From: a virus
Taxonomy: Duplodnaviria; Caudoviricetes
IMG/VR virus record: IMGVR_UViG_3300005573_000164
Coordinates: 1-40,166 of that record
DNA: 40,166 bases
Reading direction: 5' to 3' (one strand)
Each line of letters opens with the position of its first letter. The stretch's first letter is position 1. A model generated the notes under the pieces. It worked only from the letters and a program-made list of their open reading frames with translations. It did no database searches and was not told the origin of the DNA. Position numbers and translations under genes: made by a program. This document shows positions 11,984 to 31,029 of this stretch, in pieces.

Positions 11984-12205
11984 TCACCGGACAGGTGTTG
12001 TTGAATGATTGTTCGACACGCGGACATGCTGGCCTCGCGCGCCGTAGTATTCCATCACCGAGTCGGGAGTCGGGAAGCATCCCGACACCGGGCAGAGCCG
12101 ACGTTGTTTGAAGGCGCGCTGTATGGCCTTCACCTTTTTTTGGTCGGGCAGTGCATCTACGATGGCCGCTCCCAATGGTGTGATTGTGAAGCTCTTGTCT
12201 TTCAT
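11984..12205 (-). CDS. Cassette 1 hypothetical protein
   Basis: 73 aa with an AAGGAG RBS; lies mainly between core GTTCGAC (12011) and inverse core GTCGAAC (12224) and ends past the core. Confidence 0.65.
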   Translation of the reverse strand: MKDKSFTITPLGAAIVDALPDQKKVKAIQRAFKQRRLCPVSGCFPTPDSVMEYYGARGQHVRVSNNHSTTPVR

Positions 12206-12918
12206 GGTTTCTCCTTCTTCGGTGTCGAACCCGGCGTTTCAGCCAACCTCGTCAGACTCGGCGGCTGAACTTTGTCGTTGGCCGCATGGCGCGAGTCCAA
12301 GGTTACTTGTCCGCCGCGCAGGTCCACGAACGCTCCTTTGATTCGCAGGTTCTCGATGGCGTCCCGTATCGCATTCGCATTGTCATCGTCCCACGCCACG
12401 AGCATGGACGGTGCGCCAGCCGTCCCGCCTTTCGTGCCGTTCACATGGTAGAAGCTCAGTCTCCCTTTGAGGAAGCATACCGCTGTCGCACGCGGCCATA
12501 TGTAGGTAAAGAATTGTTGGGTTTCGGTGCGCGCGAAGATGAGGGCGGTGCAGTTCTTGTGTTCGGCGCACCGGCGCATCCACTCTCCCGTCTTTGGGCC
12601 GTAGGGCGGGTTGCACCACACGCGCCCGCGCCATTCTTTGAGCAGGCCGTTGTCCCTGATTGTGTAGTGTTGTTTCGCAGTCGGCCACGGGCGGTTTATC
12701 GGGGCGCATGGGTCTAGGTCGAAGTCGCCCAGTGCGCGGAAGATTTCTGGCGGGGTGAGCCATTCTTCTTTGCCGTTTTCGAGGTCGCGGTCGTGCGCGA
12801 ATCCGATGCGCTTTTCTTCTGGCATTACCGGAGCGGCCAACAAATCGCTGCACGCAACGGCTTGCGCCGCCGCGTTCCGCTGGTCAGGGGCTTCGGTGAG
12901 AGCCATTTGTTGTGTCAT
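12202..12918 (-). CDS. DNA N6-adenine methyltransferase (phage Dam-type), cassette 2
   Basis: EWLTP, FDLDPCA, WCNPPYG and RTET motifs; ATG at 12918 with an AAGGAG RBS inside attC C. Confidence 0.88.
   Translation of the reverse strand: MTQQMALTEAPDQRNAAAQAVACSDLLAAPVMPEEKRIGFAHDRDLENGKEEWLTPPEIFRALGDFDLDPCAPINRPWPTAKQHYTIRDNGLLKEWRGRVWCNPPYGPKTGEWMRRCAEHKNCTALIFARTETQQFFTYIWPRATAVCFLKGRLSFYHVNGTKGGTAGAPSMLVAWDDDNANAIRDAIENLRIKGAFVDLRGGQVTLDSRHAANDKVQPPSLTRLAETPGSTPKKEKP
12224..12283 (+). mobile_element. attC site B (60 bp)
   Basis: GTCGAAC CCGGC GTTTCAGC ... GCTGAAC TTTGTC GTTGGCC; extra base in L''. Confidence 0.9.
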
Positions 12919-12960
12919 ACGTTTTCTCCTTTTCCGCCGTGCGTGAGCTTGGCGTTCCCT
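12835..12960 (+). mobile_element. attC site C (126 bp)
   Basis: GGCCAAC AAATC GCTGCACG CAACGGC ... GCCGTG CGTGAGC TTGGC GTTCCCT; two extrahelical bases on the left arm. Confidence 0.9.
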
Positions 12961-12964
12961 GGAT

Positions 12965-13612
12965 TCATCGCCGTTCCTCCGGTTGCACGTAGGGCAGTCC
13001 GACGAAGGCGAAGACTTCGGCCTCTGATTCCATCGCTCGCGTCTCGCCGGCGCGCGAGAACCCAGCGCCGTATGGATTCCACTTCCATCCACGAGCTTGA
13101 GCAGCCATACAGATTCGCATGTTGCTGGCCGCCGGGCCGGTTCGGCAGACGAGATAGTTCCACCAGTTCTCCGTCGTAGCCGCGAACAAGTCCACTGGAA
13201 TGCCGCTGGCGCGGTGGCGCATCAGCTTGTTTTTCGGCCCATACATTTCCGACCCGTTCGCGTTCTTGCGGCGTTCGAGTACGCCAGACTTTTCGAGCGA
13301 GGCGATTGTTTCGTCCGCTAGATTTACCGTGAGGCTGGCGAACATATCGGCGGGGTCTTGCCGCACTTCGGTTTTGCCGATGTAGAGGATTTCCACGTCG
13401 CCAACGGTCGGCTCGCGGCGGCGCAGCGAGCCAGCGACGATGAGGCGTTCACACACCGGCTTGAGTGCGGCGCAGAGTTCGGCGGCGACCTTCATCCCGA
13501 CAGCATTCGGGAAGCGCGGCTTCCCGCCAACCGGGGAACAATGCGCTGCTGCCAATGACTGCCCGCGTTGGGCATTATTGGCAGAACCTACGTTGTTGGC
13601 GCGGGTATTCAT
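12965..13612 (-). CDS. polX: Minimal X-family DNA polymerase / nucleotidyltransferase (palm+thumb only), cassette 3
   Basis: AGSLRR..TVGDVEIL, IPVDLF, RTGP..SN and SEAEVFAFVGLPYVQPEER motifs of PolX; no lyase, HhH or PHP domain. Confidence 0.8.
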   Translation of the reverse strand: MNTRANNVGSANNAQRGQSLAAAHCSPVGGKPRFPNAVGMKVAAELCAALKPVCERLIVAGSLRRREPTVGDVEILYIGKTEVRQDPADMFASLTVNLADETIASLEKSGVLERRKNANGSEMYGPKNKLMRHRASGIPVDLFAATTENWWNYLVCRTGPAASNMRICMAAQARGWKWNPYGAGFSRAGETRAMESEAEVFAFVGLPYVQPEERR

Positions 13613-13632
13613 GGCGGAGCTAATCGTTCTGC
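13533..13632 (+). mobile_element. attC site D (100 bp)
   Basis: GGGGAAC AATGC GCTGCTGC CAATG ... CATG GCGGAGC TAATC GTTCTGC. Confidence 0.85.
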
Positions 13633-13633
13633 G

Positions 13634-14017
13634 TCATTTGAGGGTTGCGTTCCATCTCCAGCCTGTGTGTTTCCCGAGTGCTATATCCACGGTTACAGTG
13701 TCGCCTTTATTCAAGCTCGCCCACCGCTCTGCGCTCGTGCCGACCGCGATGACTTCGTTGCCTATATCTACGATCACCGTCCACTTCTCAGGCTCGCTAC
13801 TTGTTATCGTTACAACGCCGGCTTTTCCTCCGCTGCCCACAGCTACGCCGGTGCCTGTTTGGGTGCTACTTGGCGTGTAGACCTTCTCTACGACTTTGCC
13901 GGCGTGTTCTTCGTGTCGGAAGCTGCACGAGACGCAGAATAATACGCCGCACGCAATGGCTGCAGCCGTTGCGATTCGTCGGCGTGCCGTGCCGGTGGAG
14001 GTCGGTGATTGATTCAT
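13634..14017 (-). CDS. Small exported protein/lipoprotein, cassette 4
   Basis: Hydrophobic signal ending CVSC, then a beta-rich body; start and RBS (AAAGGAAACC ATG) are inside attC E. Confidence 0.7.
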   Translation of the reverse strand: MNQSPTSTGTARRRIATAAAIACGVLFCVSCSFRHEEHAGKVVEKVYTPSSTQTGTGVAVGSGGKAGVVTITSSEPEKWTVIVDIGNEVIAVGTSAERWASLNKGDTVTVDIALGKHTGWRWNATLK

Positions 14018-14062
14018 GGTTTCCTTTCGATGCTGCCGCCGTGCATGATCTTTTAGTTAGCC
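13934..14062 (+). mobile_element. attC site E (129 bp, R'' AAC>AAT)
   Basis: GCAGAAT AATAC GCCGCACG CAATGGCTGCAGC ... GCTGCCGCCGTG CATGATC TTTTA GTTAGCC; GACGCAGAAT complements the upstream core GTTCTGCGTC. Confidence 0.75.
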
Positions 14063-14295
14063 GCAGAGCCGGTCAGCCACACGGCACGCCCTACGAGTTC
14101 CATTTCTTCCCACGTTGCCCGGTAGTAGGCTTGTCCGCCCATCTTGCCGTCAGCACCGAGAGCTTGGACGTAGCCTTGTGCGCCCCACGACTTCGGTTCG
14201 CTCACCGTCATCATGCACGCACCGAGCATCGGGTTCTTGCACTTCTCCGGGTTGAGTTGCACGACCATTCCGGCTTCGAGTTCTGTCTTTTGCAT
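14053..14295 (-). CDS. Cassette 5 hypothetical (SH3-like small beta) protein
   Basis: 80 aa with an AAAGGA RBS; ends AAN* at the R' of attC E. Confidence 0.7.
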   Translation of the reverse strand: MQKTELEAGMVVQLNPEKCKNPMLGACMMTVSEPKSWGAQGYVQALGADGKMGGQAYYRATWEEMELVGRAVWLTGSAAN

Positions 14296-14317
14296 TTGTT
14301 CCTTTCAGTTATTCGGC

Positions 14318-14378
14318 GGCCAACAATTCGGTTCAGCCAACTCGCGTAGGACGCTCGCGGCTGACCTCCCCGTTTGGA
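14318..14378 (+). mobile_element. attC site F (61 bp)
   Basis: GGCCAAC AATTC GGTTCAGC ... GCTGACC TCCCC GTTTGGA. Confidence 0.88.
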
Positions 14379-14596
14379 CAAATCTCAAAGTTTGCATCAG
14401 CAAAGTCTCCATTGCAGTCCCACACCATTTTCCCGTCTTTGTACAGATAGGCCCACCTGTTTCTTCCAACCCCTTTTATCCGCAGTTCGTAGGGCGCATA
14501 GTGCGGCGAGATGTAGGCTAGTGCTATGCCGATTGGCCGAACCATGCGCCGAAGCGAACGGCGGGATTTCTTGGCCGGTTGATTGTCAGTGGGCAT
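14333..14596 (-). CDS. Cassette 6 hypothetical protein
   Basis: 87 aa; starts in the attC G loop (GGAGG RBS) and stops in L'' of attC F. Confidence 0.65.
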   Translation of the reverse strand: MPTDNQPAKKSRRSLRRMVRPIGIALAYISPHYAPYELRIKGVGRNRWAYLYKDGKMVWDCNGDFADANFEICPNGEVSRERPTRVG

Positions 14597-14643
14597 TTGA
14601 GCCTCCGTGGTTGTTTGCGACGGCGCTTGGCTTACCGTTGGGC
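14536..14643 (+). mobile_element. attC site G (108 bp)
   Basis: GCCGAAC CATGC GCCGAAGC ... GCTTGGC TTACC GTTGGGC. Confidence 0.8.
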
Positions 14644-14930
14644 GTGATTGTCACGCGCACTGGTTGGGGTTGTGCCAGCCGTGAGGCTGTGCTATAGGTC
14701 TGGACACTTTTTGATGTAGCCGTCTCTCGAAGGCGTCGTGCACGCGCTAAAAGGTCTTCCCGCAGAAAAGCGAGACGCTCTTTTTCAGCTTCTGTTCGCC
14801 ACGGATCAGGCACTAAGAGAGTTGCAGTCGCTTCCAGGTGGGCCGCCACCGCGAGAGTGATGAGTCGTTCTGTTTCATAATGAGATTGCTTTATGATTTT
14901 TCTCGTTGCCGTGCCATTGGGAGTCTTCAT
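14586..14930 (-). CDS. Cassette 7 hypothetical (chimeric) protein
   Basis: 114 aa with a strong AGGAGG RBS; its 3' part derives from a frameshifted copy of the 15474-15536 sequence. Confidence 0.5.
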   Translation of the reverse strand: MKTPNGTATRKIIKQSHYETERLITLAVAAHLEATATLLVPDPWRTEAEKERLAFLREDLLARARRLRETATSKSVQTYSTASRLAQPQPVRVTITPNGKPSAVANNHGGSNAH

Positions 14931-15141
14931 TGCTTATATCCTCCTACGCGAGATTTGCCGACTGGTTGGTGGAGTCGCTGCTTTGCTCGCATATCTTTTT
15001 GTGATCGGGCTTGCCATCACGCTTGTGGTGGTCTTGGCCGGTCTCGTCTGGCAGTTTATTGTTTGGGTGTTTCCGTATGTCCTCGGCGGCGCTGCCGTCA
15101 TCGCTATTATTGCTTTCATCGTAAAGGCGGCTCGCAGGTGA
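14893..15141 (+). CDS. Small multi-TM membrane protein in conventional (sense) cassette orientation
   Basis: 82 aa, almost entirely hydrophobic; its stop codon lies 6 nt before R'' of attC H. Confidence 0.5.
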   Translation: MIFLVAVPLGVFIAYILLREICRLVGGVAALLAYLFVIGLAITLVVVLAGLVWQFIVWVFPYVLGGAAVIAIIAFIVKAARR

Positions 15142-15759
15142 TACCGCGCCCATCAATTCGGGACAGCGAACGGGCGAGGACGCCCGTCGCTGACCTCCGG
15201 TGTTCGGCACAAATTCCAAGCATGTTTCAGAGCCGTCATTGTATCGGTACAAGTCCGCAGTCGGCGGACACGAGGCGCGGATACAGCAGTCTGCGCACAG
15301 TGTTCCCTGTCCTCGCGGAGGTTGCGGCACGGGTGGCAGTGGCGGCGTCCATCGCTCGCAGCCGCACGATGGGCAGCTTGTCCTGTTCCAGTAGAGCACT
15401 CCGCAGCTGGCGCAGTGCCGAACCATCCGATGAGCCGAACATGAGGGAGCGAGGCGGCGCTCACTGGTGATGGGTTGGGGGTAGTGCCAGCCGTGAGGCT
15501 GTGCTTGTAGGTCTGGACACTTTTTGATGTAGCCGTATCGTTCCACTATCCACTGCCGTGCCTTCTCGCGGGTCACAAAGAGTTTCGGCAGAAAGTTTTC
15601 TCGGAGCAGGTATTGCGTGATCCCGCTGTAGTTCTCCGAGTGCCACATCGCACCCCACGCCGAACAAACTAGATGCCGCGACCCATGACCACGCGGCGCG
15701 GCTTTTTCCCCGTTTTTCGCCTTTGTAGGTGTACGTTTTTTCATATCAGACTTCCGCAT
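14944..15759 (-). CDS. Read-through fusion ORF spanning cassettes 9 and 8 (Cys-rich, zinc-ribbon-like) and attC I/H
   Basis: 271 aa; N-terminal domain, then CxxC pairs (CASC, CPSC, CADC); the tail is the antisense of the 14893-15141 ORF. Confidence 0.55.
   Translation of the reverse strand: MRKSDMKKRTPTKAKNGEKAAPRGHGSRHLVCSAWGAMWHSENYSGITQYLLRENFLPKLFVTREKARQWIVERYGYIKKCPDLQAQPHGWHYPQPITSERRLAPSCSAHRMVRHCASCGVLYWNRTSCPSCGCERWTPPLPPVPQPPRGQGTLCADCCIRASCPPTADLYRYNDGSETCLEFVPNTGGQRRASSPVRCPELMGAVSPASRLYDESNNSDDGSAAEDIRKHPNNKLPDETGQDHHKRDGKPDHKKICEQSSDSTNQSANLA
15148..15208 (+). mobile_element. attC site H (61 bp, R'' AAC>ATC)
   Basis: GCCCATC AATTC GGGACAGC GAACGGGCG AGGA CGCCCGTC GCTGACC TCCGGT GTTCGGC. 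Confidence 0.85.
15417..15475 (+). mobile_element. attC site I (59 bp, R' GTT>GAT)
   Basis: GCCGAAC CATCC GATGAGCC ... GGCGCTC ACTGGT GATGGGT; GTGCCGAAC perfectly complements the core at 15202. Confidence 0.65.
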
Positions 15760-15799
15760 CCGTCCTTCTCATAGCTGCCTTCAACACGGTATATTCGGG
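15659..15799 (+). mobile_element. Degenerate attC site J
   Basis: GCCGAAC at 15659 and ATTCGGG at 15793 (the upstream gene reads SPN through it); internal pairing is poor. Confidence 0.35.
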
Positions 15800-16002
15800 C
15801 TGCGAGACTTCACCCATTCGAGTGCGAAGTTCTCGGTAGCCGATGTGATTGCGGTCTCCCATCGGTTATTGCGGCCGCGCTGTTGCACTGTCCAGCGGTC
15901 GCCTTCTATGCGTGGCGGTTTGATTCGGTAGCCAGCTATGATGCGGCACTTCTTCTTGGTATCCGGAATGCTCGGCTCGCGGAATTTCAGCACATAGCTC
16001 AT
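15781..16002 (-). CDS. Hypothetical protein
   Basis: MSYVLKFREP..., 73 aa; ATGA overlap with the methyltransferase stop; AAGGAA RBS. Confidence 0.6.
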   Translation of the reverse strand: MSYVLKFREPSIPDTKKKCRIIAGYRIKPPRIEGDRWTVQQRGRNNRWETAITSATENFALEWVKSRSPNIPC

Positions 16003-16658
16003 TGTTTCCTTTCTTGCCAGCAGTTCGCCAGGAAGAAAGCCCGTGCGAAACCGCATGGTGTTGCAGAGCGTAGTTCTTTCGTTCGTTCGGACTTCCCGCC
16101 GAGTTTCTGCACCCAGCTTCCCTGCGAACAGACTCGTTGTGGGGTCACTTCGTTTCTCGGCAGTGCCCGGTTGAAGTGGCCGTAGAGCGCAGTTTTTTTC
16201 GTCCACGGGTCGCCATACCACCACGGCTCGAAGTACCAAGGCTTGCCCAGTTCCGGCAGCAGCTTGTGGAGTCGCCCCACCGGGTTTTCGAGTGCCCACC
16301 AGTCCGGTTTGCAGAAATCCACGCAGCGGAGCACCTGTCGCACGAGTTCCAGGCTCTTTTCCGTGCGCCCGTCCGCGTCTTTCACTTTCCAGTATTGTGC
16401 CCCGCTCGCCGCGAAGTCGGTGCAGGGTGGCGCGGCGAGTATCCCGTCCACCGTGCCGAACTTATCCATCACGTTTTCCATCAGCCAGGCTGCGCTGAGT
16501 TCCATCACGTCGATTCCGTGCTTGAGGTCTATCTGCACCACGTTCGCGCCCGCCTCCAAGTACGGAGCAGACCAGTTCCCAGTGTAGTCAAAGAGCGATA
16601 GGATGGTCCGACCGCTGCAATCCACGATTAAGGACTTGGTGATCATCGCTGGACTCAC
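15999..16658 (-). CDS. Short phage-type C5 cytosine DNA methyltransferase
   Basis: ILSLFDYTG (motif I-like), AAPPCTDF (catalytic PC) and WALENPVG (motif VI); start is GTG 16658 or ATG 16646. Confidence 0.85.
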   Translation of the reverse strand: MSPAMITKSLIVDCSGRTILSLFDYTGNWSAPYLEAGANVVQIDLKHGIDVMELSAAWLMENVMDKFGTVDGILAAPPCTDFAASGAQYWKVKDADGRTEKSLELVRQVLRCVDFCKPDWWALENPVGRLHKLLPELGKPWYFEPWWYGDPWTKKTALYGHFNRALPRNEVTPQRVCSQGSWVQKLGGKSERTKELRSATPCGFARAFFLANCWQERKQ

Positions 16659-16676
16659 TGAGCCGCAGCGTTAAAA
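16602..16676 (+). mobile_element. Degenerate terminal attC site K
   Basis: The right arm ACTGAGC CGCAGC GTTAAAA is canonical; the left arm GATGGTC CGACC GCTGCAAT has lost AAC. Confidence 0.45.
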
Positions 16677-17279
16677 TGGGATGTTGTCTTCTTCGGAGTC
16701 ACGGCTTTGCCTCGGCTCCTCTTCATGGCCAGGTTGCCACTCCTTGCAACTCGCAATCACGCTCTGCAACCCGGCGCTCAACGATTTGAAGGTGTCGTTC
16801 TCGCCGTCCTCGATCTGGTAGTGTATAGTCTTGGTCAACAACTCCGGCGGTGCTGGCGTGCCCTTCGGCAAGGGTGTAATGGCGGTGATATTAGCGTAGG
16901 TCTTGCCGTCCTTCTCTTTGTGGATCAGCGTCAGCAGGCACGCCTTCCCCAACACCTTCTCGACTTTGAACCCCTTGAGTTCTTCGGGCCTAAATCCGAT
17001 CCCCCTCCAACTTTCGAGATCGGCCCGCAAGTTGGCATTATTGGCCAGACTGTTCGTGTACCGTTGCCAAACGATGTGCGGTTTCTTCAAGCCTTCTTCC
17101 GTCTCGTAGAACTCGTCACTTAATTCCCAACCGAGCAAAATTTTCTCCTGCCATATCACCCGGTTGTTCCAGGTGGTTTGCTGCGTGCCAAGGTCAATGA
17201 CCGCGAAGCACCGGGCGCGATGCGTTCCGGCGGGTGGCGGTATGATGTTCTTGCCTGTGTCTTTGGCGGTTGTGCTCAT
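16671..17279 (-). CDS. ssDNA-binding-like / NGO0469-type phage replication protein
   Basis: PPAGTHRARCFAVIDLGTQ N-terminus, LGKACLL, and an acidic C-terminal EEDNIPF typical of SSB tails. Confidence 0.7.
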   Translation of the reverse strand: MSTTAKDTGKNIIPPPAGTHRARCFAVIDLGTQQTTWNNRVIWQEKILLGWELSDEFYETEEGLKKPHIVWQRYTNSLANNANLRADLESWRGIGFRPEELKGFKVEKVLGKACLLTLIHKEKDGKTYANITAITPLPKGTPAPPELLTKTIHYQIEDGENDTFKSLSAGLQSVIASCKEWQPGHEEEPRQSRDSEEDNIPF

Positions 17280-17297
17280 GTTTCTCCTTTTTGTTTA

Positions 17298-17492
17298 TTA
17301 TTTCCTGACGGCGACATGATCATAGGCCAAGTAAGCCTGTTGTTCCTCCGGGGCACATCTCATCGAAGGCATCCTGGAGTAGTCGCGTGGCTTCGCGCTC
17401 GCTGCACCATCCGGCTTTTGGTCGGCATTCACCTGGCCGCGCACGACGTGGCCCAGCCGCGAGCACCTCATTATGGATTCGAGTGCTTTCAT
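17298..17492 (-). CDS. Hypothetical protein
   Basis: 64 aa, ATGA-coupled to the upstream gene. Confidence 0.4.
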   Translation of the reverse strand: MKALESIMRCSRLGHVVRGQVNADQKPDGAASAKPRDYSRMPSMRCAPEEQQAYLAYDHVAVRK

Positions 17493-17872
17493 CGGCCGAC
17501 CTTCGCTTCGGCAGCGGTTGCGGTTGGCTCGGTATTACCATTTACAACCGAGAGTTTCATTTTGAGTTGATCGGGGTTGTCCCGCATCAACCGTCCATCC
17601 TTGGTTGTGTAGAGCACGCTCGCCTTGCGTTCCGGCTTTGGCAGCTTCTCATCCACGCGCACGAACGCTTTGACCGTTGCGCCTTCTTCATCCATCGGCA
17701 CAAGCTCCACGGTCACGACGACCTTCCCGCGCAGGACCGTCTCGCGGACTGCCTTCACTAATCGCTCCAACGCCAACGACGCATCAGCTGCGTGCTCGCC
17801 ATCACGCAGACTGGCGAGCAGTTGAATGAAGCTATTGTTGACCGGCTTCACTTCGGTCTGTTTCTTTCGCAT
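17489..17872 (-). CDS. Conserved phage hypothetical protein
   Basis: MRKKQTE...LERLVKAVRETVLRGKVVVTVEL...LMRDNPDQ; AAGGAG RBS; ATG at 17872. Confidence 0.7.
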   Translation of the reverse strand: MRKKQTEVKPVNNSFIQLLASLRDGEHAADASLALERLVKAVRETVLRGKVVVTVELVPMDEEGATVKAFVRVDEKLPKPERKASVLYTTKDGRLMRDNPDQLKMKLSVVNGNTEPTATAAEAKVGR

Positions 17873-18161
17873 CGGTTCTCTCCTTGTTGTGTCCCGCAAG
17901 CGCGGGATGGTTAAAATTGTTCCGCCGCTTTGCGGTTATCGCCTGTTGGCCGTCGCCGGTCAGGTATTGTGATTCCGCCCATGCAAGCACCCGGCTCTTC
18001 AAGAACCGCCGGTGCCCGCCCGGAATGCAGAAGTGCGGCAGGATGTGATGCAGCCGCCGGTAGTAGGACGTGTTGGAAATCTTGAGGAACGTGCACACGT
18101 CCTCAATCGTCCAGACTTCATCGTCCAGTGCCGTGCTTGGGGCGGGGGTGTTGTTCATCAA
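17832..18161 (-). CDS. AlpA/excisionase-like HTH DNA-binding protein
   Basis: WTIEDVCTFLKISNTSYYR...LPHFCIPGGHRRFLKSRVLAW. Confidence 0.8.
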   Translation of the reverse strand: MMNNTPAPSTALDDEVWTIEDVCTFLKISNTSYYRRLHHILPHFCIPGGHRRFLKSRVLAWAESQYLTGDGQQAITAKRRNNFNHPALAGHNKERTDAKETDRSEAGQQ

Positions 18162-18370
18162 TGCGAAATCAATTCCTCTGGTGGCGCGCCCGGTTCCTCT
18201 TCTCGGAACGGTTCAATCTTCTGGATCATCTGGGGAAACCATTGGAACATAGCCGCGAACCCCGCGCGTTCCTCCGGCGTCAGCTTCTCCCGTTCCTCCA
18301 AGTACAGTGCCAGCACTGCCGCCATCCGGTCCGCCACCGGCAACTGCATAATAATGGTGTGCTGGCTCAT
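18158..18370 (-). CDS. Hypothetical protein
   Basis: 70 aa, coupled within the operon. Confidence 0.55.
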   Translation of the reverse strand: MSQHTIIMQLPVADRMAAVLALYLEEREKLTPEERAGFAAMFQWFPQMIQKIEPFREEEPGAPPEELISH

Positions 18371-18371
18371 G

Positions 18372-18551
18372 CTAGCCCTGGCTGACTATCGTCGGCAGGC
18401 CAGTCTTCTCTCGGAGCAATTGCTCGATCAATCCACTCAACGATAAGCCATGGCGTGCGGCGAAATTCTCCGCCGCTTCACGCACAGTTGCGTTCAGCGC
18501 GATGTTGACCGGTACCTTGTCTCTTTTGCGTCGTTCTCTTGTCTTGTTCAT
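18372..18551 (-). CDS. Ribbon-helix-helix (Arc/CopG-like) regulator, not in the ORF track
   Basis: Hand translation gives MNKTRERRKRDKVPVNIALNATVREAAENFAARHGLSLSGLIEQLLREKTGLPTIVSQG (59 aa); first gene after a strong promoter. Confidence 0.75.
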   Translation of the reverse strand: MNKTRERRKRDKVPVNIALNATVREAAENFAARHGLSLSGLIEQLLREKTGLPTIVSQG

Positions 18552-18559
18552 ACATGCGC

Positions 18560-18588
18560 ATAATATGTATATACCCTGTATATGTCAA
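18560..18588 (-). promoter_or_regulatory. Sigma70 promoter of the replication/cassette operon
   Basis: TTGACA-17nt-TATTAT with the ATG 8 nt further on (leaderless-like); TGCGCA palindromes at about 18555 and 18614. Confidence 0.8.
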
Positions 18589-18639
18589 GTGCCAAAATAC
18601 TTCTTGCATGTTGTGCGCATAGTGCGATAGACAGGTCGC

Positions 18640-18951
18640 TCATCGGGACACGTTGTCGCCATCTTTGGCATGACCCTTCACCACCACGGTCACCTTATTC
18701 CACTCCATTGTTTCGGCCAAGGTGACGGTGCGGACTTTCACGGTGGCGCCCCGCTTCTCTAAAATCCTTTTGGCGGCGCGGTTGACCATCCATTGGAAGA
18801 GCGCGGAGTTGCCGCCCGCGAGAAACCCCGCCACGGCGTCCGTCTCGAACGCCAGCAGGTTGATGGTGAGTCCGGTCAGTGACCCGGTGGGTGGAATCGG
18901 TAGGTATCCGATCCGCCGCTTCGCTTCGGTCTGTGCAGATTGCCAGGTCAT
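18640..18951 (-). CDS. Hypothetical protein
   Basis: 103 aa, ATGA-coupled. Confidence 0.55.
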   Translation of the reverse strand: MTWQSAQTEAKRRIGYLPIPPTGSLTGLTINLLAFETDAVAGFLAGGNSALFQWMVNRAAKRILEKRGATVKVRTVTLAETMEWNKVTVVVKGHAKDGDNVSR

Positions 18952-19175
18952 GACGCCACCGTGACGTTGAACACGACCTGCAAACGGTAGTCACCGGAGT
19001 CTGCGCCAACCCACCAACACCGGCACATGCAGTTCTCCCATCTCTTGCCGTCCACCAACTCCATTGGGGTCGAGCAATGGGGACATAATGGTTTACGGTG
19101 TTCATTGATCTGCACCGCATAGGTAAGGCCGTCGCGGGTGTTGGTCGCTTGCGCGAGTACGATGTTCTCTTTCAT
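18948..19175 (-). CDS. Small zinc-ribbon protein
   Basis: CPHC...CMC; AAAGGA RBS. Confidence 0.55.
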   Translation of the reverse strand: MKENIVLAQATNTRDGLTYAVQINEHRKPLCPHCSTPMELVDGKRWENCMCRCWWVGADSGDYRLQVVFNVTVAS

Positions 19176-19210
19176 GCATTCCTTTCCTGCCCCGGTTTGG
19201 CGCGGGACGA

Positions 19211-19323
19211 TGCCGGCGGCTCTATGCCGCCCTTGATTTCTTCTTCGGCTAACATTTGCTCATGCGTGGACAATAGCACAAAAGGGTTGTCGGTGTCAAG
19301 CGGTCAGGTGTTCATTGCCGCAG
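19211..19323 (-). pseudogene. Deleted duplicate of 20051-20280 (promoter plus truncated small gene)
   Basis: Near-identical to 20051-20280 but lacks 20094-20210; the ORF is reduced to MSKC*; the promoter TTGACA-18-TATTGT is retained. Confidence 0.8.
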
Positions 19324-19476
19324 CCAGGACAGATGCACTTTGTCGCCTTCGGGTTCGGTTCTTCGTGCGGGAACACGGTAGCGCCTTCCAGCCCAAGCTT
19401 GCAGGGACGAATCGATGGCTGGGACCGGCGTGGCGTAGTAGTCGGACACTTCGCCTTTCCCGCCGCGATTGGTGCT
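19296..19476 (-). pseudogene. Fused gene remnants (methyltransferase-like N-terminus plus CxxC C-terminus)
   Basis: Reads STNRGGKGEVSDYYATPVPAI (like phage MTase N-termini) and then, in another frame, ...KCICPGCGNEHLTA*; no start codon. Confidence 0.4.
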
Positions 19477-19536
19477 AACTAATAGGAAATTGCTTTTGCG
19501 GGGGCCAGAAAGGGCGCAAGCCGGGGTTATAGCCCC

Positions 19537-20013
19537 TCACAATCCCTCAAGGTCTTTCTTCTCCTTTGCCTTCTTCTTTGCATCTTCTCTCTCGATGTAC
19601 TCCTTCGTAACCACCGTCAAATAATTCTGCATGGTCATGTACTGAGCGAAAAGAGTACCGTCCTCCGTCTGCCACTCCTTGTCCATCGAAATGATCTCTC
19701 TTTTCTTCCACTTCTTGTTGCCGCCGTTGGCCTTGAGCAGTGTCTCAATCTCGTTGTCGGACATCTCCTTGGCGTTGTCTAAAATATCCGTCTCCTCCTT
19801 CCGGTAGCTAACCAAACCTGCTTTTCCCTGATGGAAGCCGACCATGATAAGAAAACCGCCTTTGCGGAAAAAACTCATCCCGCTGTCCGTGTCGGTCTTG
19901 AATGCTTTGCCGTATCTCGTCTCGCACTGAGCAGGTGTTTCACCGATTCGTGCGAAAACGCACGCGGGTAGAAACAGCATCACCGCGAGTAGTACAGAGG
20001 TCTGATTTTTCAT
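19537..20013 (-). CDS. Exported/periplasmic protein (moron-like)
   Basis: 158 aa; signal peptide ending VFA-RIGETPAQCETRYG; AAGGAG RBS; flanked by the 12-bp direct repeat AGCCGGGGTTAT (19519, 20040). Confidence 0.8.
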   Translation of the reverse strand: MKNQTSVLLAVMLFLPACVFARIGETPAQCETRYGKAFKTDTDSGMSFFRKGGFLIMVGFHQGKAGLVSYRKEETDILDNAKEMSDNEIETLLKANGGNKKWKKREIISMDKEWQTEDGTLFAQYMTMQNYLTVVTKEYIEREDAKKKAKEKKDLEGL

Positions 20014-20061
20014 GTACGCTCCTTATGGCTATCATTGTTAGCCGGGGTTATGCCGGCGGCT

Positions 20062-20220
20062 TTATGCCGCCCCTGGTTTCTTCTTCGGCCAACGATTGGC
20101 CTTCAGCAGTCTGGCAGTGCGCTTGGCGATCTCCTCCGGGCTGTAGTTCTTCTTCTGACTGCCGCCTTTGCGGCCAATCTTCACGAAATAATCATGCACA
20201 GCTTTGGGTAATTTGCTCAT
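20062..20220 (-). CDS. Small basic protein (IGRKGG motif), leaderless
   Basis: MSKLPKAVHDYFVKIGRKGG...; ATG 6 nt after the -10 box. Confidence 0.7.
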   Translation of the reverse strand: MSKLPKAVHDYFVKIGRKGGSQKKNYSPEEIAKRTARLLKANRWPKKKPGAA

Positions 20221-20226
20221 GCGTGG

Positions 20227-20256
20227 ACAATAGCACAAAAGGATTGTCGGTGTCAA
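20227..20256 (-). promoter_or_regulatory. Sigma70 promoter with extended -10
   Basis: TTGACA-18nt-TATTGT with TGn; duplicated at 19270-19299. Confidence 0.65.
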
Positions 20257-20363
20257 GCGGTCAGGTGTTCATTGCCGCAGTCATTTCGGGCGTGATGGTC
20301 GAAGTGATTGCTTTGGATTGGCATGGCAGTTCTCCTTGTGGTTTGTTTCTGGTGTAAACAACT

Positions 20364-20384
20364 CCGGCCCGAGAGTCGGGCCGG
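20364..20384 (-). terminator. GC-rich hairpin after the ATPase gene
   Basis: CCGGCCCGA-GAG-TCGGGCCGG followed on - by AGTTGTTT. Confidence 0.45.
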
Positions 20385-20401
20385 GTGCGGCAGAATGCCG
20401 C

Positions 20402-21079
20402 CTAACGGATCTTCGACTGCAAGCCCATCACGCAGGCCCGGTAACTCAGATGCCCCCCAATGACGGCGCCGGGCATGTCAGTCACCTTCGGCGCAGGCCC
20501 GCGCTGGCCGGCTTCCTTCCACAGATTGCGCAGCCAATCGTTGGCCGTGGGCATCAACACCGTGGCGCGGGACTCGAATTCCAGTTGCTCGCACCGGGTG
20601 GTGAACCGCCGGTCCATCGCGTCGGGCTCGTTGGTGGTGAAGATCCAGATGGCGTTCGGTGGCGGGTAATCCAGCAGATGCAGGAACACCTGCTTGGCAT
20701 CATCGCGGAGCTTGTCGGCTTCGCTGACGGCAATGACCTTCCACCCGGTCTTGTTCATGGCGGCATACCACGCCGAGCGCATCCGTTGATCCACGTCCCC
20801 CGCCGTCAACGTCACGGCGCACAGGTCGAAGAACCCGCTCATTTGCGCGCGGAGTTCGCCGCCCTCAATGTCGCATCCTAATGCCCTGGCCAACACGCGG
20901 GCCGTACAAGACTTCCCGCAGCCGGTCGCCCCATAAAACAGGAACGCGGCGGCATACGGGTTGGCGACGAACCGTTGGAGCCGGTCCACGACGGCCGCCT
21001 GCCCTTGAATCTCGTTAAACGTCAGCGGCGCGAGCGTCTTGGTCAGGGATTTTTGGGTATGGAATCGTTTGGTCATCAT
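20402..21079 (-). CDS. Clamp-loader-like AAA+ ATPase (DnaX/RFC family)
   Basis: PLTFNEIQGQ, FLFYGATGCGKS (Walker A), VSEADKL (altered Walker B), WIFTTN and TRC (SRC-like). Confidence 0.82.
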   Translation of the reverse strand: MMTKRFHTQKSLTKTLAPLTFNEIQGQAAVVDRLQRFVANPYAAAFLFYGATGCGKSCTARVLARALGCDIEGGELRAQMSGFFDLCAVTLTAGDVDQRMRSAWYAAMNKTGWKVIAVSEADKLRDDAKQVFLHLLDYPPPNAIWIFTTNEPDAMDRRFTTRCEQLEFESRATVLMPTANDWLRNLWKEAGQRGPAPKVTDMPGAVIGGHLSYRACVMGLQSKIR

Positions 21080-21258
21080 GGTGTCCTTTCTTTCTTGGTG
21101 CGGTCTGGAGTGGGATGGTACGACTCCAACCGGTTTTCGATCTCGATGCAGCGGGCACACGCCCAACAGCCCCATTTGTAGATTGTCCCCACTGCCCCAC
21201 ACGCGCAGAGTCGGGGACGATTCAGTTTCCGCTTCTCTCGGCAGTGGTTGGTACGCAT
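21076..21258 (-). CDS. Small Cys-rich protein
   Basis: CAC...CARC; AAGGAG RBS; coupled to the ATPase gene. Confidence 0.5.
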   Translation of the reverse strand: MRTNHCREKRKLNRPRLCACGAVGTIYKWGCWACARCIEIENRLESYHPTPDRTKKERTP

Positions 21259-21382
21259 ACGGTCTCCTTGGTGGGGTAGTGGCAGACGATGCAGCCGTCT
21301 TGCCCGTCTGGTCGGTTATAGAGCATCCATCCAGACGTTGTGTTCATGCCGCGCGAGCTTGCAATGGTGAATCTTGGCGTCT

Positions 21383-21664
21383 TCATGGGCTGGCTCTCGG
21401 CGGCTGAGCTTGAGCGTTAGGAGCAATCCACTCGCCGCCGTCAGAGTGTATCCGCACCTTGCCGGTCTTGGTGATGTAGATTTGCAGTCCGCGTTTGTGT
21501 TTTGGCGTTTCAATTCCGAGTGTCACCCATCCCTTTTTCTCATCGGAGAAGTAGCGTTGCACTTTTGCCGCGCCCCACTCGAATCCATATTTGGTTTCTT
21601 GGTAGTGCATAAAGCTCCTAACAACGTGGATGCAGCGAACGCTGATCCGCTGCGTTGCCGCCAT
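21383..21664 (-). CDS. Hypothetical protein in an isolated inverted cassette
   Basis: The body lies between core GTTAGGAGC (21416) and inverse core GCTCCTAAC (21614-21622). Confidence 0.7.
   Translation of the reverse strand: MAATQRISVRCIHVVRSFMHYQETKYGFEWGAAKVQRYFSDEKKGWVTLGIETPKHKRGLQIYITKTGKVRIHSDGGEWIAPNAQAQPPRASP
21398..21422 (+). mobile_element. attC right half-site (L'-R')
   Basis: CGGCGGCTGAGCTTGAGCGTTAGGA is a canonical attC 3' end; no left arm was found. Confidence 0.7.
21616..21660 (+). mobile_element. Mini attC site (45 bp)
   Basis: TCCTAAC AACGTG GATGCAGC GAAC GCTGATC CGCTGC GTTGCCG. Confidence 0.75.
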
Positions 21665-22385
21665 TTTTGACGCCTTTACCCCTCAACATCACGGCGCCGA
21701 TGAAAGTCAGAGCAGCACGATACTCTGCTGCATACTGATCATTACCGTGCACTTCTTGCAATTTTTCCTCAAAGTATTCCATGCTTCCAAAGAAGCATCC
21801 GGTTTGCAAACGCACACCTTTGTCTGTCAAGAACGCCGCCAGGTATGAGTTTCTAGAGCCAAGCTGCCCTATGCATAACATAGCACGATTTGATCCCAAA
21901 ACCACGGAACCGTCTTTCAACTTCGCACCAGCCAACTTCGCACCAGCCAACTTCGCACCAGCCAACTTCGCACCAGCCAACTTCGCATTGGCCAAGTTTG
22001 CCCCCGCCAAGTACGCACCGGCCAAGTTTGCACGAGCCAAGTTTGCATAGGCCAAGTACGCACCGGCCAAGTTTGTATTATCCAAGTACGCACCGGCCAA
22101 GTTTGCACCGGCCAAGTTTGCATAAGCCAAGTTTGCACAGGTCAAGTTTGTACAGGTCAACTTTGCATCAGCCAAGTTTGCATCAGCCAACTTTGCACCG
22201 GCCAAGTTTGCATCAGCCAACTTTGCACCGGCCAAGTTTGCACCGGCCAAGTTTGTATCAGCCAAGTTTGCCTCAGCCAAGTTTGCACCAGCCTTAGCTG
22301 CAGCTTCGAGGCATTGTTTGATATTTTCAGCTTCAAGCGAGAACAGCACGCTTCCATCCCATCGATTTTTTATTTCAACTTTCAT
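21618..22385 (-). CDS. Pentapeptide repeat protein
   Basis: About 25 A(N/K/Y)LA(G/D/Y) repeats, with the N-terminal [11 protein letters not shown] and C-terminal GSRNSYL...GCFFG typical of phage versions. Confidence 0.92.
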
Positions 22386-23238: not shown

Positions 23239-23787
23239 TTAGTTGGCGGAATGGAACAACTGATCAATCTCAGCCGGGGTGAGAAACCGGCCAGCTTGAG
23301 CATCCCACGCCGATTTGATGCGGACGCCACTGGCGATGATTTCGCCGGCATCCCGCCAGTCTTGATAATATTCCAAGCCGCCGGTCGGCGACTGGCTGGC
23401 ATCGCCCTCGATGCCGTACCGTTTGCCGTTCCAGTTGCAGGCGGTGAACAATTTATCTGGATGCGTGAACAAGCCCCGGTGGTCTTTCTCGCCCGGCTTC
23501 ACGCCGTCGCAGTTGTACTTGAACGGCTCAACAAGTGTGCCGTCCGGCTTGATCTGGTCGGCGATGAGTTCCACCAGCTCCATCGGGTTCCGCATCCCGC
23601 CATGCTCCTGCAATACTTCCAGCGTGATACTGCACAGTTCGGCAACTTGTCCTGGCACACCGAATCGGGTCAGGACATGGTGGCAGTTCGCGTCGCCGAT
23701 GGCGCGCAAACCGTGTGGATGTTTGGCGCGGATCTCCACCAGCGCGCCGTACACGGCATCGAGTGTTTCTTGTTTTGTCATGCCCAT
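23239..23787 (-). CDS. Hypothetical protein (N-terminus shared with 25805-26134)
   Basis: The N-terminal ~66 aa are encoded by the 643-bp repeat; the C-terminus is unique. Confidence 0.6.
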   Translation of the reverse strand: MGMTKQETLDAVYGALVEIRAKHPHGLRAIGDANCHHVLTRFGVPGQVAELCSITLEVLQEHGGMRNPMELVELIADQIKPDGTLVEPFKYNCDGVKPGEKDHRGLFTHPDKLFTACNWNGKRYGIEGDASQSPTGGLEYYQDWRDAGEIIASGVRIKSAWDAQAGRFLTPAEIDQLFHSAN

Positions 23788-24230
23788 TCCTCCTTCAGCC
23801 GCATTTCCCGCCAACGCCTGGCTTGGTCACCCCGCGCATGTTTTTCCTGAAGAGCGGCCTTCCGCAACGATTCATCCGGCCACGGTTTGCGATGACAACC
23901 TTCCCGGTACAGGTTACGGCCCTTGATCAGAAGCTTCCTACCATCGCTCAACTGCAACATGAACGTATGCTGTTGCTTGCTGGCACCATAGCTATCCCGG
24001 ATGATTTTGCCTTCAATCGTTTCCATCCCGAGAAACTTCGGATTGCGCCAACTCCCGCCGAAGCGCGCCCGCTCAAAACAAACTTCATCTCCGACTACTG
24101 CATCACCGGTGCAGTCTATCGTATATTGCTCAGTCTTCATCTTTGATCTCCTTTCCTGTGGTTTGTTCCGCCGCCTTGTACTTCAACTTCTGCTTCTGCA
24201 CGCTGCAATCGGCCCGCGGTATGTCATCCC
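23588..24230. repeat. 643-bp direct repeat, copy 1 (copy 2 at 25935-26577)
   Basis: Identical by eye, offset 2347 bp; identical ORFs at 23778-24140 and 26125-26487. Confidence 0.95.
23778..24140 (-). CDS. Hypothetical protein (duplicated)
   Basis: 120 aa with an AAGGAG RBS. Confidence 0.75.
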   Translation of the reverse strand: MKTEQYTIDCTGDAVVGDEVCFERARFGGSWRNPKFLGMETIEGKIIRDSYGASKQQHTFMLQLSDGRKLLIKGRNLYREGCHRKPWPDESLRKAALQEKHARGDQARRWREMRLKEEWA

Positions 24231-25804: not shown

Positions 25805-26134
25805 TTACCGGCCCTCCGCTTTGGCAATGGCGGCGCGGGCTACGGGCAGCAATGCGCCGATCTCGTCATTCCAAAAATCGGCGTGTTCCCGCGCTCTAAG
25901 CAGCCGTTCGCATCTTTGTAACGCTTCCAGCATCTTCCGCATCCCGCCATGCTCCTGCAATACTTCCAGCGTGATACTGCACAGTTCGGCAACTTGTCCT
26001 GGCACACCGAATCGGGTCAGGACATGGTGGCAGTTCGCGTCGCCGATGGCGCGCAAACCGTGTGGATGTTTGGCGCGGATCTCCACCAGCGCGCCGTACA
26101 CGGCATCGAGTGTTTCTTGTTTTGTCATGCCCAT
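25805..26134 (-). CDS. Hypothetical protein (C-terminal ARAAIAKAEG motif)
   Basis: Repeat-encoded N-terminus fused to MLEALQ...ARAAIAKAEGR, a common phage C-terminal motif. Confidence 0.6.
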   Translation of the reverse strand: MGMTKQETLDAVYGALVEIRAKHPHGLRAIGDANCHHVLTRFGVPGQVAELCSITLEVLQEHGGMRKMLEALQRCERLLRAREHADFWNDEIGALLPVARAAIAKAEGR

Positions 26135-26577
26135 TCCTCCTTCAGCCGCATTTCCCGCCAACGCCTGGCTTGGTCACCCCGCGCATGTTTTTCCTGAAGA
26201 GCGGCCTTCCGCAACGATTCATCCGGCCACGGTTTGCGATGACAACCTTCCCGGTACAGGTTACGGCCCTTGATCAGAAGCTTCCTACCATCGCTCAACT
26301 GCAACATGAACGTATGCTGTTGCTTGCTGGCACCATAGCTATCCCGGATGATTTTGCCTTCAATCGTTTCCATCCCGAGAAACTTCGGATTGCGCCAACT
26401 CCCGCCGAAGCGCGCCCGCTCAAAACAAACTTCATCTCCGACTACTGCATCACCGGTGCAGTCTATCGTATATTGCTCAGTCTTCATCTTTGATCTCCTT
26501 TCCTGTGGTTTGTTCCGCCGCCTTGTACTTCAACTTCTGCTTCTGCACGCTGCAATCGGCCCGCGGTATGTCATCCC
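25935..26577. repeat. 643-bp direct repeat, copy 2
   Basis: On - it begins with the last ~100 bp of the ligase gene, directly behind the early promoter leader. Confidence 0.95.
26125..26487 (-). CDS. Hypothetical protein (duplicate of 23778-24140)
   Basis: Identical translation. Confidence 0.75.
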   Translation of the reverse strand: MKTEQYTIDCTGDAVVGDEVCFERARFGGSWRNPKFLGMETIEGKIIRDSYGASKQQHTFMLQLSDGRKLLIKGRNLYREGCHRKPWPDESLRKAALQEKHARGDQARRWREMRLKEEWA

Positions 26578-26675: not shown

Positions 26676-26730
26676 GGGCAAAAAGCGGCTTTAAGCAATT
26701 TAAGCGATTTATGGCATATTAAATGCTGGG

Positions 26731-26884
26731 CGGCGTTCACCGGGGGCCGGCGTTCACCGGGGGCCGGCGTTCACCGGGGGCCGGCGTTCACCGGGGGCCG
26801 GCGTTCACCGGGGGCCGGCGTTCAGCGGGGGGCGGCGCGCCAGGGGCGGCGCGCCAGGGGCGGCGCGGGGGGCGGCGCGCCCCC
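26731..26884. repeat. GC-rich tandem repeats (17 bp x5 plus a variant; 14 bp x2 plus variants)
   Basis: CGGCGTTCACCGGGGGC at 26731, 26748, 26765, 26782 and 26799; CGGCGCGCCAGGGG at 26833 and 26847. Confidence 0.95.
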
Positions 26885-30996: not shown

Positions 30997-31000
30997 ATGC

Positions 31001-31029
31001 TTGACAAATTGGCAGGACGTGCGCATCAT
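31001..31029 (+). promoter_or_regulatory. Sigma70-like promoter
   Basis: TTGACA-17nt-CATCAT with ATG at 31040. Confidence 0.45.

Follow-up and report, generated by a model that had tools for sequence, protein, structure and literature searches.

A 40-kb phage record with a terminal repeat, IMGVR_UViG_3300005573_000164 (the whole stretch of 40,166 nt is called the window here), carries attC-like sites among genes that face backwards, and genes running through the crossover box of the adjoining site read its AAC as Asn. From sequence comparison, small accessory genes are probably held in backward integron-type cassettes that a host integron integrase swaps at AA|C, with read-through in frames other than that of Asn being purged; the probability of this reading is put at about 0.6. 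Reversed polarity, R-box complementarity within each cassette, a frame bias, exchange of tails after the Asn and divergence of related contigs at the crossover were all observed, in a record without an integrase.

Reversed cassettes in a phage record

About nine attC-like sites lie between 12.0 and 15.8 kb, with their genes on the bottom strand (Table 1). All window genes are on that strand except the ORF at 14893-15141, for which there was no family hit and which the custom gene caller did not pick. The window thus departs from a typical bacterial array, in which top-strand genes end at their own R''. It fits the definition of a CALIN, a cluster of attC sites without a neighbouring intI. It is not a complete integron (intI, attI and Pc), as it has no tyrosine recombinase: a PF00589 profile search of the whole record gave no match. 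CheckV completeness of the record is 63%, its terminal repeat notwithstanding. An integrase above the cut-off was found in 1 of 50 array-bearing records, and in 0 of the 17 records that were at least 90% complete.

Table 1. Sites and genes of the array (R' positions as in the text; X1 and X4, contigs of relatives)
Feature	Position	Strand	Remarks
Half site, L'-like stretch and R' GTTCGAC, crossover G|TT at 12011/12012	11999..12017	+	Left arm not recognisable; 7/7 match to R'' 12224-12230
Cassette A gene, 73 aa	11984..12205	-	R' 12011 read as Asn, then 8-residue tail
attC-like site, both arms	12224..12283	+	Asn-frame stop overlaps next start (ATGA); X4 contigs diverge left of 12278
Cassette B gene, Dam-family adenine methyltransferase	12202..12918	-	Starts within own site; R' 12277 read as Asn
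Long attC-like site	12835..12960	+	Loop holds methyltransferase ribosome site and start codon; relatives diverge at 12954 (X1) and 12957 (X4)
Cassette C gene, DNA polymerase beta (PolX)-like palm/thumb	12965..13612	-	Stop 11 nt before R' 12954
Decayed long attC-like site	13533..13632	+	R' 13626
Cassette D gene, 127 aa	13634..14017	-	Stop 8 nt before R' 13626
Decayed long attC-like site	13934..14062	+	R'' = AAT, R' 14056; R'' against R' 13626, 6/7
Cassette E gene, phrog_19062	14053..14295	-	C-terminus is Asn-stop
attC-like site, both arms	14318..14378	+	R' 14372; left of 14379, X4 carries a different site and box
Cassette F gene, 87 aa	14333..14596	-	Starts within own site; R' 14372 read as Asn
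Long attC-like site	14536..14643	+	R' 14637
Cassette G reverse gene, 114 aa	14586..14930	-	R' 14637 read as Asn
Hydrophobic ORF, 82 aa, forward (bacterial polarity)	14893..15141	+	Stop 6 nt before its R''
attC-like site	15148..15208	+	R'' = ATC, R' 15202; Asn-frame tail of 86 codons; X1 diverges after 15204
In-frame fusion of cassette I and cassette H genes, plus long tail	14944..15759	-	Deletion at about 15470-15475
Remnant site, R'' GCCGAAC, R' deleted	15417..15470	+	R'' 7/7 with R' 15202
Candidate decayed long site, R'' 15659-15665	15659..15799	+	Possible R' reading ATT at 15793 (unproven)
Half site, L', 6-nt spacer, R' GTTAGGA at 21416	21403..21422	+	7/7 with R'' 21616-21622
Cassette J gene, 75 aa	21383..21610	-	R' 21416 read as Asn
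Short attC-like site	21616..21660	+	R' 21654
Pentapeptide-repeat gene	21618..22385	-	R' 21654 read as Asn

The palindrome R''(AAC)-spacer-L''...L'-spacer-R'(GTT) with an extra base in L'' is present at 12224-12283, 14318-14378, 12835-12960 and 21616-21660. It is decayed at the sites beginning at 13533, 13934, 14536 and 15148, and only half sites remain at 12011 and 21416. With the top strand as the + strand, the extra base sits in the left arm wherever both arms survive. The boxes in question are therefore R', as a preliminary description of the window had labelled them, and the idea that R' and R'' had been interchanged was ruled out. Two further R' boxes, 12954 and 13626, were added, short of which genes end. 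The pentapeptide-repeat gene has no visible R'' of its own and may mark the array edge. The 3' part of the cassette G gene duplicates, with a frameshift, the gene at 15475-15560 (copy at 14637-14700).

Pairing of the boxes identifies the modules as real cassettes. In the window, the R' of the left site matched the R'' of its own cassette at 5-7 of 7 positions in 9/9 cassettes. Across viral R boxes the match was perfect within the cassette in 125/186 cases, compared with 19/186 within the same site, and loci from GTDB showed perfect cassette-defined complementarity in 20/29. At relatives of the cassette J gene with a detected site of their own (L396, L401 and L424), the R' match was 7/7. Folding energy was of no use for ranking window sites. 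L-box stems form in some, the bottom strand is usually not the more stable, and bottom-strand z-scores ranged from +0.7 to -3.1, reaching -2 or below in 3/8. In the window, many sites show weak folding or are only half sites, which counts against the reading given above.

The comparison set, built with a custom attC detector and gene caller of our own, comprised 335 sites in viral contigs; 128 of 266 viral loci fetched by pattern or homology held sites. At the working threshold decoys gave 3 hits against 153. Both flanking genes were reversed at 207/335 viral sites and both forward at 18, whereas among 145 GTDB sites these counts were 2 and 70. A strict site pattern found only 8 loci, four of them one and the same site. 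The 15 loci with relatives of two window genes in viral contigs gave nothing beyond weak score-12 or lower-confidence hits (L010, L015), and no array among them was convincing. By blastn, one window site had no match in GenBank phages and the window sites gave only short matches to the fetched loci, with no clue to a host; the detector found no convincing site in P12002L.

Reading frame at the crossover box

All ten read-throughs quoted in the preliminary description, from VSNN at 12011 to SPNI at 15793, were found on the minus strand. Where GTT is intact, the frame is that of Asn in 8/8 (12011, 12277, 14056, 14372, 14637, 15202, 21416 and 21654). The two others had been taken for degenerate boxes. 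QPIT (ATC, 15469) proved to be a deletion scar: a cluster relative has an intact gene ending in ...PQPVRVTITPN plus a tail (P0133), and the next gene starts with MTPAITSERR (P0131, P0132), which indicates that the window deletion removed R' and fused two genes. Insertion at a secondary site (GAT) was rejected, since the spacer is only 3 nt and the relatives show a deletion. SPNI (AAT, 15793) lies at the right end expected for a long decayed site; its L' spacing does not fit, and it stays unproven.

The proposed chance expectation of 1/3 was wrong. In phage coding DNA, AAC was in frame in 8624/17066 cases, and the fitting null is about 0.6, with a background for the Asn frame of 50-61% rather than 33%. 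Under context-matched probabilities, the 8/8 in the window has P = 0.006, not 1.5e-4. Even so, phase at R' was far from random in the larger sample, as had been predicted. Among 248 viral reversed genes, 66 stopped before the box, 62 had TAA in the box and the read-throughs were 116:3:1 by frame. The Asn frame was thus used in 116/120 against 73 expected (P about 5e-21); the P values given here are optimistic, since sites have ancestry in common. This count includes some read-throughs whose tails span 85-355 codons and which are probably fusions or false sites. Counted by gene family, 111 were in the Asn frame and 4 were not; a recount by ORF length only, without a codon model, gave 135:6:4. 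Gene ends in loci without sites gave 741:421:312. Where no frame was closed within the last 12 nt the ratio was 38:1:0, and over 30 nt 24:1:0. At boxes lacking TAA, frame-1 gene ends were depleted (14 vs 63), while frame-0 ends numbered 70 vs 55. In MW202573, genes annotated by the depositor end in Pro-Asn-Val-stop at such sites.

At R'' the frame varies, as the preliminary description had noted: nine window crossings had phases 1,2,1,2,0,0,0,1,1, and viral genes starting inside their own site gave 19:10:20. Forward genes crossed R'' at 6:13:7 in bacteria, where the tail lies in the own cassette, and at 8:6:2 in viruses. In the forward phage array TJE1, two genes read the R'' AAC as Asn with no neighbour involved; this and the viral forward ratio count against the reading given above.

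Exchange of tails and closure of the frame

Homologous proteins differ past the Asn, as had been anticipated. In the methyltransferase cluster, ...HAAN is common to 4/5 members and is followed by four different tails, three of them other than that of cassette B. The closest homologue of the cassette E gene (P0002) has the same Asn and then an 11-residue tail, and homologues of cassette J carry many different tails past the same Asn. Among the contigs listed, those of relatives diverge at the crossover (12278, 12954, 12957 and 15204), and these data point indirectly to exchange at G|TT. Tails range from 1 to more than 30 residues. A conserved tail peptide was rejected because the tails have no common motif. 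They look dispensable; for two cassette genes, most of the homologues listed lack one.

As the cassettes face backwards, the 3' end of each gene would meet a crossover box, and a host integron integrase would likely swap cassettes at AA|C. A read-through gene would then take its tail and stop from whichever site adjoins. Three kinds of gene end are tolerated: the gene may stop short of the box (often with TGA at -8), have TAA within it, or read through in the Asn frame. Cassettes reading through in the other two frames are presumably purged, as a neighbouring site is less reliable in closing those frames, with overlap of or fusion with the next gene as the result. Sites would in turn keep an Asn-frame stop because about half of the possible neighbours need one, a self-reinforcing convention. 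Selection for safe termination is the likeliest cause of the bias, and the tails are probably neutral passengers. The benefit would be an operon still translatable after shuffling, not new protein domains.

The selection for frame-compatible junctions proposed earlier gains indirect support from stops that are not in use. At sites without a present read-through neighbour, the Asn frame was closed by the next start in 83/89, compared with 70 and 60 in the other frames (paired tests 16:3, P = 0.002, and 25:2, P = 3e-6); at 12835..12960 the unused stop overlaps the methyltransferase start. Window sites had an Asn-frame stop in 10/10, against 5 and 4, whereas 116 bacterial sites showed no such bias (49/48/40). 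The further claim that any reshuffle supplies a valid tail, stop and coupling was overstated. Stop-start coupling within 12 nt is a minority feature (20/85 and 27/89 viral cases), 7/85 Asn-frame read-throughs fuse to the next gene, one window tail runs to 86 codons, and 128/248 reversed genes stop in or before the box and need no tail. Closure was unsafe in 7% of cases in the Asn frame vs 21% and 33% in the others. This penalty is moderate and may alone be too small to produce 116:3:1. Often the cassette end itself closes the other frames, by TAA at -1 (53/120 read-throughs) or TGA at -8, and part of the bias is thus structural.

Origin of the bias and relation to known systems

Such structural closure would suffice if the frame were set once, at cassette birth, by a donor end TGA-N-RYYT-AAC that closes two frames or by capture at the AA of a terminal Lys or Asn codon, with no continuing selection. 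TGA at -8 does occur in 29/66 stop-before, 11/62 TAA and 20/116 read-through ends, and in the J family the fourth codon after the last Trp is AAC in 20, AAG/AAA in 24 and AAT in 4 of 75 loci, as fits an AA| derived from a Lys codon. However, the bias persists with all frames open, boxes without TAA are also common in bacteria (44/84), and GAA or CAA codons should yield frame-1 captures, which amount to 3/67. At least one Lys form (L474) resembles a decayed site, so the change between Lys and Asn forms may have run either way, and the unused Asn-frame stops would be explained by ancestry only. A by-product of birth is a possible but unlikely account. It is still less probable that tail chemistry, rather than stops, is selected, the other frames of the GC-rich palindrome giving harmful Arg-rich, more hydrophobic tails and the Asn frame a linker-like one. 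Inside phage sites, Arg+Lys is 10-13% in the Asn frame vs 19-26% in the others and hydrophobic residues 17% vs 21-25%, but this gap may itself stem from use of the Asn frame, and bacterial forward genes tolerate all read-through frames, though on the other strand. Such a preference is compatible with selection for termination.

In eukaryotic exon shuffling, a shared junction phase makes modules interchangeable, and the preliminary description had seen a likeness to it. Phase matching bears this out; the rest of the likeness does not hold, as no domains are exchanged. The phage case is DNA recombination without splicing, and the units are whole genes plus a neighbour's tail. The window lies outside exon or domain shuffling, with short, motif-less tails that most listed homologues lack. 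A function of the tails, as degradation tags or interaction peptides, with swaps that tune the proteins, is very unlikely. They are exchanged at a fixed residue, in-frame fusions across sites occur (the 7/85 above and 14944-15759 in the window), and synthetic attC sites can act as peptide linkers (PMC7439510). Nevertheless, half of the cassettes have no read-through, and in 27/116 read-throughs the whole tail is Asn plus one residue. An artefact of codon bias, gene calling and selective listing has hardly any probability. The raised background, the small window sample and two unsound cases among the ten reads would fit it, but 116/120 stands against 73 expected, the recount without a codon model gave the same result, the depositor's annotation of MW202573 agrees and decoy hits were few.

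The phage sites resemble those of bacterial integron arrays (IntI, attI, Pc, attC) in the order R''-L''-L'-R', the extra base in L'', spacers of 5/5-6 nt, the G|TT crossover and the cassette-defined R-box complementarity. In contrast, bacterial genes face forward, and each has its end at its own R'', whatever the frame; in the phage, gene orientation is reversed, genes end at the crossover, and both tail and stop come from the neighbour. No intI was found in the window record. In the parts covered of Qi et al. 2023 (PMC9892861), phage CALINs are described as attC clusters in phage genomes without intI, with DNA methyltransferases in the cargo, as in the window, and with attC sites that are IntI1 substrates in an assay; crossover between A and C of RYYYAAC is given there and in PMC7439510. 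Those parts of the main text and supplement make no mention of reversed polarity as a rule, of the crossover frame or of tail exchange, yet their example MW202573 shows the reversed Asn-frame pattern in the present scan. They report 17 CALINs in 10,705 genomes, compared with sites in 128/266 loci here, which had been fetched by pattern or homology; TJE1 is forward. Sites embedded in coding sequence and read as protein were proposed for integrase-driven shuffling of protein parts by Nivina et al. 2020 (PMC7439510). Theirs are engineered interdomain linkers, whereas the phage ones are natural and lie at gene ends with short variable tails.

In the literature searched, no description of reversed, frame-locked phage cassettes was found. 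Integron cassettes are usually treated as bacterial and forward-facing, and phage attC clusters as rare captures. The data show a common phage-specific format of opposite polarity in which the crossover follows a coding rule; even a published example displays it. Here a natural recombination site serves as coding sequence at the same time, and the variable C-terminal tails of many small phage proteins are thereby explained. More speculatively, and with low probability, many uncultured phages may run a cassette economy of their own on the host integrase, in this mirror-image, frame-locked format. Crossover at the AA in the last codons of ordinary phage genes (TAA stop, or Lys/Asn) would make cassettes of them, the early operon would stay translatable through any shuffle, recombination would be favoured when genes are co-oriented with replication, and host cassettes, often anti-phage, would be silent if they landed in the array. 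Cassette birth, a long-open question, would then be visible in phages; cassette creation is called largely unknown in the part covered of PMC5371416. The occurrence of the same gene families both with sites and without them offers a way to study it.

Crossover boxes in the window

All ten translations quoted in the preliminary description were found in the window sequence. In every attC site that keeps both arms, it is the left arm on the + strand that carries the extra base. This identifies + as the top strand and the GTT boxes as R' (read as AAC on the bottom strand), with the genes encoded by the bottom strand. The crossover falls between A and C of RYYYAAC (PMC7439510). Ten R' boxes have an intact GTT; eight are crossed by genes, 8/8 as Asn, and the genes at R' 12954 and 13626 end 11 and 8 nt short of the box, respectively. 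The chance expectation of 1/3 suggested earlier is too low, since, across 1.07 Mb of phage sequence called as coding, 8624 of 17066 AAC trinucleotides fall in frame. Under a null matched for the two preceding bases, 8/8 has P = 0.006, so the window by itself is only moderate evidence for a frame rule.

Several window sites are long, the loop holding the start codon of the next gene; decay, or loss of one half, is seen in several, and the sites fold weakly (z <= -2 in 3/8). The ATC at 15469, previously regarded as a degenerate box, is ruled out as a crossover. The relatives' protein P0133 is an intact upstream gene product with its own Asn and tail, and P0131 and P0132, for the next gene, start MTPAITSERR, so a deletion in the window joined two cassette genes. 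The AAT at 15793 is unproven as an R' box; since a relative's box at 12277 has A at the G position (a loose end in sequencing run X4), synonymous decay of AAC is possible. The secondary-site consensus is GAT/GTT.

Polarity and frame in a larger sample

Samples of at least 266 viral and at least 121 bacterial (GTDB) loci were built by pattern scans fixing R'' and not R', with relatives' loci added to the viral set; about one-third of the loci from the main viral and GTDB scans span only some 650 bases. Sites were accepted by the score of our structural detector, which gave 153 matches at score >= 12 in the first 146 sequences vs 3 on reversed decoys, and genes came from our own gene caller with site DNA masked. 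Among the matches listed, de-duplication left 335 of 380 viral sites, spread over 128 loci, and 145 of 157 GTDB sites, spread over 84. Rows were removed only by de-duplication and the score threshold; the few that show very long tails probably reflect spurious sites or gene fusions.

Among these listed matches, both flanking genes were reversed at 207/335 viral and 2/145 GTDB sites and forward at 18/335 and 70/145, the remaining sites being mixed or without a gene call. Of the 248 reversed viral genes ending at R' among the matches listed, 116 cross it in the Asn frame and 3 and 1 in the two others; 62 end at a TAA inside the box and 66 earlier. The frame at R', supposed earlier to be under selection, is thus non-random in the larger sample. 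Six nulls predict 61-75 of 120 in the Asn frame (P <= 1e-20), and 80-87 once frames shut by nearby stops are removed (P <= 4e-15), again among the matches listed. On the same basis, read-throughs with all three frames open over 12 nt gave 38:1:0 (Asn frame first), gene-family clustering 111 Asn-frame families vs 4, and a recount from ORF length alone 135:6:4 plus 64 TAA. Controls, likewise among the matches listed, gave 741:421:312 for gene ends in loci without sites, and 6:13:7 (GTDB) and 8:6:2 (viral) for forward genes across R''. Viral genes starting within their own site and crossing R'' gave 19:10:20 among the matches listed, bearing out the variable frame described for that end.

Exchange of units and closure of the Asn frame

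Among the matches listed, the left-site R' and the R'' of one module were perfect complements in 125/186 adjacent viral pairs, vs 19/186 for that R' and the R'' of its own site; the GTDB figures were 20/29 and 1/29. Complementarity follows the module, not the site, as is characteristic of units that have moved. For window modules, 5-7 of 7 bases agree between left R' and own R'' in 9/9. Homologues differ after the Asn, as had been anticipated: four of five members of the methyltransferase (cassette B) cluster share it and then carry four different tails, the fifth ending sooner; the cassette J family has many tails beyond W-x-x-P-N; and P0002 departs from the cassette E protein past the Asn. 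Relatives' contigs part from the window left of 12278 (X4), after 12954 (X1), 12957 (X4) and 15204 (X1), all crossover boxes, and in X4 another box stands ahead of 14379; these are among the 18 of 66 loose ends listed, most of the remaining listed ones lying elsewhere, and the source sample may be among runs X1 and X2.

Because a reversed gene ends at the crossover, all sequence beyond AA| is the neighbour's, and a read-through gene would take its tail and stop from whichever site adjoins. Where a site's present neighbour does not read through, the Asn frame is still closed by the next start in 83/89 cases vs 70 and 60 for the other frames, with paired comparisons of 16:3 and 25:2 in its favour, among the matches listed. 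In the window it is closed in 10/10 vs 5 and 4, three next-gene starts being uncertain; at site 12954 an unused Asn-frame stop overlaps the methyltransferase start. Bacterial sites read on the same strand have no Asn-frame bias (stops inside the site in 49/48/40 of 116 among the matches listed). Frame-1 gene ends fall at boxes with TAA in 63 cases vs 14 without, TAA-less boxes being equally common among the matches listed. This near-confinement suggests that off-frame read-through is purged: selection would remove cassettes reading through off-frame and keep Asn-frame ones. We infer this mechanism with a probability of about 0.6. Against it, the penalty of the off-frames is moderate, a TAA, or a TGA at -8, is often supplied by the cassette end itself, tails in the off-frames are moreover rich in Arg, and TJE1, a forward phage array, reads forward R'' as Asn twice.

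The preliminary description had any reshuffle supplying a valid tail, stop and coupling. Asn-frame stops are indeed kept, but stop-start coupling is a minority of viral cases (20/85 and 27/89 among the matches listed; 6/10 in the window). The tails share no motif and most homologues lack one, so they are read as passengers. The original observation largely holds, and its interpretation in part, for frame bias and tail swaps. In the cassette J family (L393-L513), the junction codon is AAC in 20/75 and AAG/AAA in 24/75 loci, a hint that terminal Lys codons might be where cassettes originate.

Phage record and known systems

The 40,166-base record has a 121-nt direct terminal repeat at its ends, and terminase, portal, major head and tape-measure genes were present among 64 ORFs scanned. 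The small accessory genes form a minus-strand block, where the Asn-frame pattern sits. Most runs containing the region come from hot-spring metagenomes. Neither the 64 ORFs nor a six-frame search of the whole record with PF00589 yielded a tyrosine recombinase, an absence that is not certain at a CheckV completeness of 63%. Only 1/50 chosen array-bearing virus records, and 0/17 of those >=90% complete, had an integron integrase above cut-off, so the acting enzyme is probably the host's.

No paper describing a reversed, frame-locked arrangement was found in the mainly open-access literature searched; these cassettes are a real, general and apparently undescribed variant of phage attC arrays. Shared junction phase is a feature of eukaryotic exon shuffling, hence the likening. 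Qi et al. 2023 described phage CALINs (attC clusters without integrase) on which IntI1 is active; reversed polarity as a rule and the frame at the crossover are not reported in the text consulted (PMC9892861). In their phage MW202573, depositor-annotated reversed genes end Pro-Asn-Val-stop. According to PMC5371416, a bottom strand on the lagging template favours recombination, and how cassettes form is largely unknown. Anti-phage cassettes are covered in 10.1101/2024.07.02.601686, and the comparison also drew on 10.1101/030866 and PMC8618304.

Further features of the window and of related loci
Location	Feature	Remarks
6508-8397	tail-fibre-like gene	43 copies of a 36-nt unit; internal 591-nt duplication
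14637-14730, 15475-15540	near-duplicate of one gene's 3' end	cassette G copy at 14637-14730 frameshifted, yet back in the family's frame ahead of Asn
14893-15141 (+)	hydrophobic 82-aa ORF, forward (bacterial) polarity within the reversed array	stop codon 6 nt ahead of own R''; perhaps a host cassette that was captured and lies antisense to the phage transcript
15417-15451	remnant site	35 nt common to X1 and X2 contigs, which go on as other attC-like sequence with another gene, perhaps a host cassette
19203-19326, 20043-20283	two promoter-like repeats (73 nt, 97%; 56 nt, 84%)	on either side of a 158-aa gene whose start resembles a signal peptide; X4 skips between copies
30986-31014	related inverted copy of the promoter-like repeats	
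23579-24146, 25926-26493	two direct copies 2347 apart, matching at 99% over the 300 nt compared	flanks ATP-dependent ligase gene with WGR domain
26711-26881	GC-rich 17-nt tandem array and more short repeats	where two transcription blocks switch; possible origin or packaging region
	DUF7699 gene	twice in window
L391 (TJE1) 77-1513	forward phage array	R'' AAC is translated as Asn in two annotated genes; another ends at the box TAA
G045:C1:12631-13572 (L388), with L147	one virus record	both an above-cut-off integron integrase and a site with reversed genes
L001-L266	viral loci	49/255 reversed genes, among the matches listed, begin in own attC site, cross L'' and R'' and gain site-derived N-termini
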